From the NCBI GenBank assembly GCA_017937305.1, contig JAGBDV010000001.1:66237-130236 (forward strand): a stretch of 64,000 nucleotides of DNA. The letters are read 5' to 3'. Shown here piece after piece: positions 20,925 through 21,148 of the stretch. The position numbers and the translations under genes were made by a program. This stretch comes from Bacilli bacterium (GTDB taxonomy: Bacteria > Bacillota_I > Bacilli_A > ML615J-28 > CAG-313). Position 1 is the stretch's first letter, and every line of letters begins with the position of its first letter. The notes under the pieces were generated by a model. That model searched no databases. It was not told where the DNA came from and saw only the letters and a program-made list of their open reading frames with translations.

Positions 20925-20953
20925 TTTACAAATAGATAAACTTATGATATAAT
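20925..20953 (+). promoter_or_regulatory. sigmaA promoter with no downstream + strand gene
   Basis: TTTACA-N17-TATAAT with TGn extension. Confidence 0.75.
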
Positions 20954-20957
20954 ATAA

Positions 20958-21044
20958 GTGAAGTAATTTGTTTCACTCGTATGAAACTCTTCTTCATTGA
21001 GTAGAAAAGTCCCTTTAAAGATTGGTTATGGGGAGGGACTTTTT
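20958..21044 (+). ncRNA. Candidate antisense small RNA (type I antitoxin-like)
   Basis: Own promoter, two hairpins, terminator AAAAGTCCCT/AGGGACTTTTT; no RBS or credible ORF. Confidence 0.6.
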
Positions 21045-21049
21045 ATATT

Positions 21050-21148
21050 CTACTTCTTTTTGTTCTTTTTTATAGAACTAAGAAATTTAATCAATGTGCT
21101 TATTAATCTGAACAATTCAGTAATAAACTTGATTATATTAACAAACAT
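21050..21148 (-). CDS. Unannotated 32-aa cationic amphipathic peptide MFVNIIKFITELFRLISTLIKFLSSIKKNKKK (type I toxin-like)
   Basis: Manual translation; AAAGGAAG RBS; i/i+3/i+4 hydrophobic periodicity; convergent with the sRNA. Confidence 0.6.
   Translation of the reverse strand: MFVNIIKFITELFRLISTLIKFLSSIKKNKKK

Follow-up and report, generated by a model that had tools for sequence, protein, structure and literature searches.

The window analysed in this study is a stretch of 64,000 nucleotides (nt) from the Bacilli bacterium assembly GCA_017937305.1 (contig JAGBDV010000001.1, positions 66,237 to 130,236 of the forward strand), and the element described here lies near its position 21,000. 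At this site, a putative small RNA (sRNA) gene on the plus strand and an open reading frame (ORF) for a peptide of 32 amino acids (aa) on the minus strand converge on one terminator hairpin, and the peptide ORF is preceded by a folded leader. Alignment of 23 such modules revealed a conserved unit of approximately 450 bp, corresponding to approximately 20920-21373 of the window, in which conservation spans the sRNA promoter, the peptide ORF, and approximately 220 bp upstream of the ORF (approximately 21149-21373). An earlier note on this DNA had placed the element at 20925-21148; the features that it read there are real, but the unit is twice as long, extending to approximately 21373, and the note had missed the 220-bp leader with its second Shine-Dalgarno (SD) sequence, its leader ORF, and a cis-acting anti-SD word identical to a word in the sRNA. 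The comparisons described below support the view that the site is one copy of a multi-copy, RNA-controlled, toxin-antitoxin-like module of gut Bacilli.

The ORF at 21050..21148 on the minus strand was predicted to encode a toxin-like peptide, MFVNIIKFITELFRLISTLIKFLSSIKKNKKK. Its frame was open in all 20 distinct copies, with a ratio of nonsynonymous to synonymous polymorphism (pN/pS) of 0.41, and, judged from these sequences, the peptide is under purifying selection. The start codon, the SD, and the position of the stop codon were conserved, the start being shifted by one codon in one clade. The peptide has a net charge of +7 and a Lys tail and lacks a signal sequence. Its hydrophobic moment of 0.57 was equalled by none of 2000 shuffled sequences, and AlphaFold2 predicted a single helix comprising residues 2-30 with a predicted local distance difference test score (pLDDT) of 88. 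Neither Pro nor Trp occurred in 17 aligned variants, and the other members inspected likewise lacked both. Searches of Pfam and NCBIfam yielded no match to the peptide at E<=1 or E<=10. On the opposite (plus) strand, an 81-aa ORF antisense to the peptide was open in all copies, yet it was rejected as a gene because it has no conserved start or ends (46 to 132 codons) and crosses the indel-rich terminator loop.

The putative sRNA is preceded on the plus strand by a promoter (20925..20953) consisting of TTTACA (20925-30), a 17-nt spacer, and TATAAT (20948-53), an 11/12 match to the consensus, with a TG at 20945-46 that makes an extended -10 element. It was the sole strong promoter-like site within 20600-21800, and the pattern CTATTTACAAA...TGnTATAMT was kept in all copies, including those from metagenomes. 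The RNA itself, an antitoxin-like transcript of approximately 86 nt, was predicted to occupy 20958..21044 on the plus strand, starting near 20958-20960 and ending with a U run at 21044. Its predicted fold has a minimum free energy of -24.6 kcal/mol (z = -3.07) and consists of helix P1 (20958-63/20992-97), helix P2 (20970-75/20982-87), and a 13-bp terminator stem (21004-16/21032-44). Across the 23 copies, this three-helix model accounted for paired bases in 92% of cells, compared with no more than 64% when one partner was slid, and five pairs were changed on both sides; in one clade, the position of the inner hairpin is taken by an unrelated helix. The sRNA copies were also used to build a covariance model, which had 26 matches among 49 family genomes, every one of them in the five genomes that carry the peptide, and an sRNA gene was found 9-12 nt beyond the stop codon of every peptide ORF (23/23). 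The gene for an M42 peptidase ends at 20899, and no terminator of its own lies between this end and the sRNA terminator (20899-21044, plus strand); its mRNA may therefore carry the antitoxin sequence in the 3' untranslated region.

The remaining three sRNA genes bear on the relation between the two partners. One adjoins a divergent 28-aa peptide, and the other two are toxin-deleted remnants without a peptide ORF, L172 (G006:C10:123200-124400) and L033 at approximately 1000-1160 (G009:C271). Both remnants retain the sRNA promoter and the 5' domain of the sRNA, and the deletion in L033 is bounded by two copies of AAGAAATA. No peptide gene without an sRNA was seen in the family genomes scanned. 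The occurrence of sRNA-only remnants together with the absence of orphan peptide genes is the pattern expected if the peptide is harmful without the sRNA. Among the indirect arguments for a toxin-antitoxin relation, this asymmetry between remnants and orphans is the strongest.

The two genes share a hairpin at 21004..21044 with stems AAAAGUCCC/GGGACUUUU and a hypervariable loop of 15-30 nt. When read on the minus strand, the hairpin is followed by UUUUCU, which makes it usable as a terminator in both directions. The sRNA U run ends at 21044, at a distance of 5 nt from the peptide stop codon (21050-52). The stems were 98-100% identical between copies. The loop was the fastest-evolving part of the module and differed between paralogues of one genome; within one clade, its pairwise identity was 67% (54% for shuffled loops) versus 88% at third codon positions. 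Provided that this terminator ends both RNAs, they would overlap by about 44-48 nt, and when the sRNA was co-folded with the full mRNA, the sole intermolecular helix was the 48-bp terminator duplex, with a free-energy difference (ddG) of -54 kcal/mol. This duplex is the certain complementarity between the predicted RNAs and is likely to be their primary contact. At the par locus on Enterococcus faecalis plasmid pAD1, the interaction of the two RNAs begins at complementary terminator loops (PMC7472228), and by analogy with par we infer that a loop-loop contact would give each sRNA-mRNA pair its specificity. The near-consensus promoter, the approximately 86-nt RNA ending in a two-way hairpin, the cationic amphipathic peptide of 32 aa, and the 5-nt distance from its stop codon to the sRNA end had all been read by the earlier note and were borne out by these analyses.

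The putative toxin mRNA (21268->21000) was more strongly folded than its shuffled counterparts (z = -5.16). Since the MAFFT alignment of leaders across clades mis-registered the SD of the leader ORF (SD1), per-sequence folds and cross-pairing tests were used in place of column counts. Folding of leaders from five clades showed two locks, which were less clean in clade B. The first is a hairpin at 21149..21173 on the minus strand that sequesters the peptide SD AGGAAGAAG (21159->21151) and is present in all 13 module types; it is the hairpin into which, according to the earlier note, the ribosome-binding site can fold. The arms of this hairpin covary: cognate arms paired with -11.85 kcal/mol and non-cognate arms with -8.99 kcal/mol, a difference reached in 0/5000 permutations. 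It is flanked by a helix in which an A/U stretch pairs with codons 2-4. In the plus-strand direction, seven T's come after the same hairpin (21149-21180), which then has the score of an intrinsic terminator and could be the end point of a longer antisense RNA covering the whole ORF; the A run that precedes the hairpin on the mRNA was kept in all clades.

The second lock, hairpin H1 (21208..21262, minus strand), pairs the cis word ACUCUUCUUC (21258->21249) with SD1, AAAGGAGAA (21222->21214). Among 12 module types, cognate combinations of cis word and SD1 gave -13.15 kcal/mol versus -10.85 kcal/mol for non-cognate combinations (3/5000 permutations). In the divergent module L173, the cis word is changed to CUCUUCUCG and the flank of SD1 to CGAGGAG.

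Downstream of SD1, a leader ORF of 24 codons with a TTG start (21133..21207, minus strand) runs through the SD-sequestering hairpin and, in the window copy, stops 16 nt past the first base of the peptide start codon. A leader ORF that ends -3 to +16 nt from the peptide start, or that is fused to the peptide in frame, was found in 21 of the 23 distinct module sequences. The distance from SD1 to its start is mostly 6-12 nt, with 3 nt in two copies of clade C, and in clade A, TTG, GTG, or ATG occupies the same site. The frame of the leader ORF and the sequence of its peptide vary between copies, which points to a regulatory ORF resembling mok. This arrangement points to a scheme in which translation of the leader ORF would open the peptide SD. 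In several members (P0001 and P0003-P0006; L023, L042, L043, and L047), the leader ORF and the peptide share one reading frame; gene callers consequently report proteins of 45-52 aa, and a longer isoform of the peptide may exist there.

A GGGGAU box (21263..21268, minus strand) lies just 5' of the cis word, and a second one (21233->21228) lies in the loop of H1. Both were kept in nearly all copies, with GGGGGAT and AAGGGAT among the variants of the first. The first box may mark the 5' end of the toxin mRNA; a -10-like hexamer (TATACT, TATAAA, or TAAAAT) is found 3-6 nt upstream of it (21268), accompanied by a poor -35 region. The boxes are SD-like, and the GUCCC of the terminator stems is complementary to them as well. 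Further upstream, a conserved block at 21269..21373 on the minus strand contains a palindrome (21272-88), a hairpin, and an A/T-rich end and is a candidate toxin promoter or insulator. In this block, GAGCAAT (21347->21341) stands at a fixed distance of 18-19 nt from TAT(A/G)TA, with a spacer that is variable in sequence, a geometry that is promoter-like but does not match the sigma-70 consensus. The block was conserved in most modules and absent from the divergent L173; the flanks beyond it differ, and its hairpin contains G.U pairs that are valid solely on the toxin-sense strand. Patterns for sigma-54 and sporulation sigma factors, checked by eye at the toxin side, were not conserved. The -10-like hexamer upstream of 21268 and the GAGCAAT/TAT(A/G)TA box pair are the two candidate toxin promoters.

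The sRNA carries a pyrimidine word, ACUCUUCUUC (20986..20995, plus strand; also written ACTCTTCTTC), which is anti-SD-like and nearly invariant in the sRNA alignment. The earlier note had described it as mostly loop; in the predicted fold, half of it lies in an interior loop and half in a stem. The complementarity to GAAGAAG beside the peptide start codon, also proposed in that note, does exist (7 bp, -8.6 kcal/mol), but it is weak, was matched in strength by 135 of 1000 mononucleotide shuffles of the word region (13.5%), and is not copy-specific. When the sRNA was co-folded with the leader only, some pairs showed a few weak intermolecular base pairs with a ddG of 0 to -4.5 kcal/mol, and trans pairing to an SD is therefore not thermodynamically compelling. 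A closer relationship was found between the sRNA word and the word in the leader of its own module (21258->21249), of which the sRNA word is an exact copy. The longest word shared by an sRNA and a leader averaged 10.67 nt for the leader of the same module and 8.17 nt for those of other modules (0/20000 permutations), and the two words have undergone three independent parallel changes: L041 has CUUUAU, L173 has CUCG, and one clade has ACUA. These data are most simply read as two words with a single partner, SD1, in which case the sRNA would be a trans copy of the cis lock.

The assembly that contains the window (1.43 Mb, 27.7% GC) has three copies of the module in total. A tBLASTn search for further copies had been suggested in the earlier note, and tblastn combined with blastn located two, at C5:~35.9-36.3 kb and C8:~89.0-89.5 kb. 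In a search of 100 relatives, the peptide was restricted to 5 of the 11 genomes of the genus, with 1-7 copies per genome, and no copy was found in the 12 other genera of the family; these five genomes contain the 23 peptide-plus-sRNA copies. The copies are often arranged in tandem with a period of 455-490 bp. The promoter, the sRNA fold, the word, the terminator, the ORF, and the RBS hairpin recurred in more than 30 copies from the five genomes and metagenome contigs. When 1.84 billion representative proteins were searched with a profile of the peptide, only nine matched, and the metagenome contigs bearing them retained the complete module architecture. A scan with a pattern of word plus terminator, which is too unspecific for other purposes and was used solely for naming carriers, listed among its matches uncultured Bacilli and Erysipelotrichaceae-like metagenome-assembled genomes from animal guts. 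In line with the earlier note, which did not recognise the family, Rfam, Pfam, and NCBIfam contained no family that matches the RNA or the peptide of the module, and full-text literature searches found no description of it. The ctRNA_pT181 model (Rfam RF00242) scored 24.7 bits against a gathering threshold of 56 (E = 0.74), which is at chance level.

The genes flanking the three copies in this genome are unrelated to one another. The window copy lies between the M42 peptidase gene and a lipoprotein operon, and the other two are accompanied by genes for FeoB, a C_GCAxxG protein, and an EAL protein and by genes for a DUF3800 protein and an ABC ATPase, respectively. Just upstream of the module in the window, a perfect 10-bp palindromic bidirectional terminator, AAAAGAGCTCAATTGAGCTCTTTT (21441-21464), closes the lipoprotein/peptide operon. 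A AAAAAGTTTTCGACAA motif sometimes borders the module. Two divergent members, L004 at approximately 1700-2330 (G006:C7) and L173 (G003:C8:15450-16650), have the same architecture with more hydrophobic peptides of 28 aa (MKISLIAAIINLITAIINFLKIILRNRK and MIIVIINLIIVLLKLALVIIDIIRSKKK, respectively), and one of them stands in tandem with a standard module; the superfamily therefore extends beyond the members that the peptide profile detects.

Taken together, we consider it probable that the unit of approximately 450 bp at approximately 20920-21373 is a stand-alone type I toxin-antitoxin-like module. The type I-like character had been proposed in the earlier note, and it is supported by the purifying selection on the peptide, the covariation of the SD hairpin, the co-occurrence of peptide and sRNA in 23/23 cases, and the presence of multiple copies. 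With 32 aa, the predicted membrane-type peptide also falls within the size range of type I toxins (<60 aa). Several results weigh against this reading. The sRNA, the toxin mRNA, their ends, and the toxin promoter are predictions, and the promoter scan of 20600-21800 found no convincing sigma-70 promoter for the toxin. The pairings of the sRNA word with the SDs are weak (-7 to -14 kcal/mol); the cognate versus non-cognate test gave no cognate advantage for the sRNA word with the peptide SD (SD2) and a non-significant cognate trend with SD1 (627/5000), and word-SD pairing was absent from the co-fold of the sRNA with the full mRNA. In the other two copies in the same genome, the leader ORF has just 3 codons, which means that translational coupling is not universal. 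Lastly, the peptide is amphipathic and not a plain transmembrane helix, and it could thus act outside the producer cell.

This last point leads to the alternative that fares best, in which the product is a secreted membrane-active peptide, resembling a phenol-soluble modulin, delta-toxin, or leaderless bacteriocin, that serves as a weapon or surfactant and is tuned by an antisense RNA. The shortness of the peptide, its lack of a signal sequence, its hydrophobic moment, its positive charge, and its Lys tail all fit such a role, and some published staphylococcal type I toxins also act outside the cell (PMC7472228), which shows that toxin and secreted roles can coexist. On the other hand, no transporter, immunity, or maturation gene is common to the copies, whose neighbours are unrelated housekeeping genes with no sign of dedicated export or quorum-sensing control. 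Moreover, the several layers of translational locking, the strict linkage to an sRNA gene, and the survival of the sRNA in toxin-deleted remnants fit a gene that is dangerous to its host. We consider secretion as the primary function unlikely.

The identity of the sRNA and leader words allows another explanation, to which we assign a low probability. The shared 10-12-nt word can be regarded as an inverted repeat approximately 255 bp apart, whose copies would either pair into a long-range helix between the 5' and 3' parts of a read-through transcript, like tac/fbi of hok, or serve as recombination sites for inverting the DNA between them, so that the toxin gene would come under the strong sRNA promoter. 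The words are exact and change in parallel in three lineages, as expected of a helix or of the core sites of a recombinase. However, in the copies inspected, the terminator on the toxin strand has a run of 4-6 U behind it, and most transcripts should therefore end without reaching the complementary word; roughly 50 family loci included no copy in the opposite orientation, no recombinase is linked to the module, and the cis word has a covarying local partner, SD1. The U run and the lack of an inverted copy make both the helix and the recombination sites less likely. The notion that the unit is a selfish miniature mobile repeat with an incidental ORF and hairpins, the "sRNA" being a terminator for neighbours such as the M42 peptidase gene, is highly improbable: it would suit a discrete multi-copy unit of approximately 450 bp that is patchily distributed within one genus and sometimes has the AAAAAGTTTTCGACAA motif at its flanks, but the ORF is under purifying selection with conserved start, SD, and stop, a near-consensus promoter is kept before the sRNA in every copy, the helices covary, and the neighbours differ, so that a terminator role cannot explain the conservation.

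For the toxin-antitoxin-like module, the predicted elements can be arranged into the following mechanism. An abundant sRNA would meet the toxin mRNA through the two complementary terminator loops, and the differences in these loops between paralogues would determine which RNAs pair. The loop contact would then zip into a duplex of approximately 44-48 bp, which would either be cut by RNase III or remain as a stable, inert complex. The tethered sRNA would present its copy of the mRNA's own anti-SD word, and once H1 is opened, this word would occupy the SD of the leader ORF (or that of the peptide) and block the coupled translation of the peptide. Without the sRNA, ribosomes would enter at the leader ORF, open the hairpin over the peptide SD, and begin translation of the peptide, which would insert into the membrane as an amphipathic helix and harm the cell.

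The closest likeness was found with par (Fst, RNA I-RNA II) and with SprA1/SprA1AS of Staphylococcus aureus. As in the module, the genes of these loci are convergent and share a bidirectional terminator, the sRNA lies outside the ORF, an mRNA stem-loop sequesters the SD, a second short complementarity (a weak, predicted one in the module) connects the 5' part of the sRNA with the initiation region, and the toxin has approximately 30 aa with a charged C-terminal tail and coexisting paralogues (PMC7472228, PMC8594479). The correspondence is incomplete. Unlike Fst, the peptide is amphipathic and has no PXXXG motif, Trp, or match to the Pfam Fst family, and the RNA matches no Rfam antitoxin model; unlike in par, the toxin is preceded by a leader ORF with its own SD, and the terminator loop is hypervariable. 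Where par has the DRa/DRb repeats over the start codon, the module has the copy of the mRNA's anti-SD word. As the counterpart of the second par duplex, the module shows just a 7-nt CU word against SD purines with no cognate advantage, and of the two convergent promoters of par-type loci, the sRNA promoter is present together with the shared terminator, while the toxin promoter is represented by candidates only.

The leader resembles those of hok/mok/sok (plasmid R1) and Ldr/Rdl, in which an overlapping leader ORF is likewise placed for coupling to toxin translation, the mRNA is strongly folded and translationally inert, and the antisense RNA acts on the initiation region of the leader ORF, as would be the case in the module (PMC4147584, PMC8594479). 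Those systems are Gram-negative and have unrelated toxins, and their antisense RNA is encoded opposite the 5' leader, whereas the sRNA of the module lies at the 3' end; 3' processing and tac/fbi pairing are features of hok that were not read in the module. TxpA/RatA and BsrG/SR4 of Bacillus subtilis share with the module a Gram-positive host and a 3'-end overlap (PMC4147584). They rely on duplex-dependent decay by RNase III, and SR4 also affects the accessibility of the SD (PMC4147584). Their overlaps extend over 75-120 nt and into the ORF (PMC4147584), whereas the predicted overlap in the module is approximately 44-48 nt and confined to the terminator, and their peptides and RNAs are unrelated to those of the module. 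In TisB/IstR-1 of Escherichia coli, as in the mechanism proposed for the module, the true SD is buried, ribosomes have to enter upstream, and the sRNA competes with them there (PMC4147584). Unlike the module, this system has a divergently encoded sRNA and SOS control and is without a leader ORF or a shared terminator. Like the predicted peptide of the module, TisB is short and forms an amphipathic helix, along which the charged residues make a stripe.

A more specific proposal, which we offer tentatively and regard as possible rather than probable, is that the module is a Gram-positive type I system in which par-type and hok-type logic are merged through mimicry of a cis element. The hypervariable loops would serve as address labels by which each of the 3-8 paralogous sRNAs reaches its own mRNA and no other, and the tethered copy of the word would replace the cis lock at the SD of a mok-like ORF each time that lock is opened; selection would then keep the two words identical, consistent with their having changed together in three lineages.

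If confirmed, the module would represent a family of RNA-controlled toxin modules that has so far gone undescribed, from uncultured gut Bacilli with small genomes, among which we know of no characterised type I system. It would also be the first system of the 3'-convergent (par-like) type known to us to make use of a leader ORF. Its many paralogues with one effector word, different terminator loops, and natural toxin deletions would provide a ready test of how cross-talk between paralogous antisense pairs is avoided, and the module would be a source of compact parts for orthogonal RNA regulators. The peptide would add a new short cationic amphipathic helix. These units of approximately 450 bp, which are missed by annotation, would account for several of the "empty" intergenic regions in the genomes that carry them.

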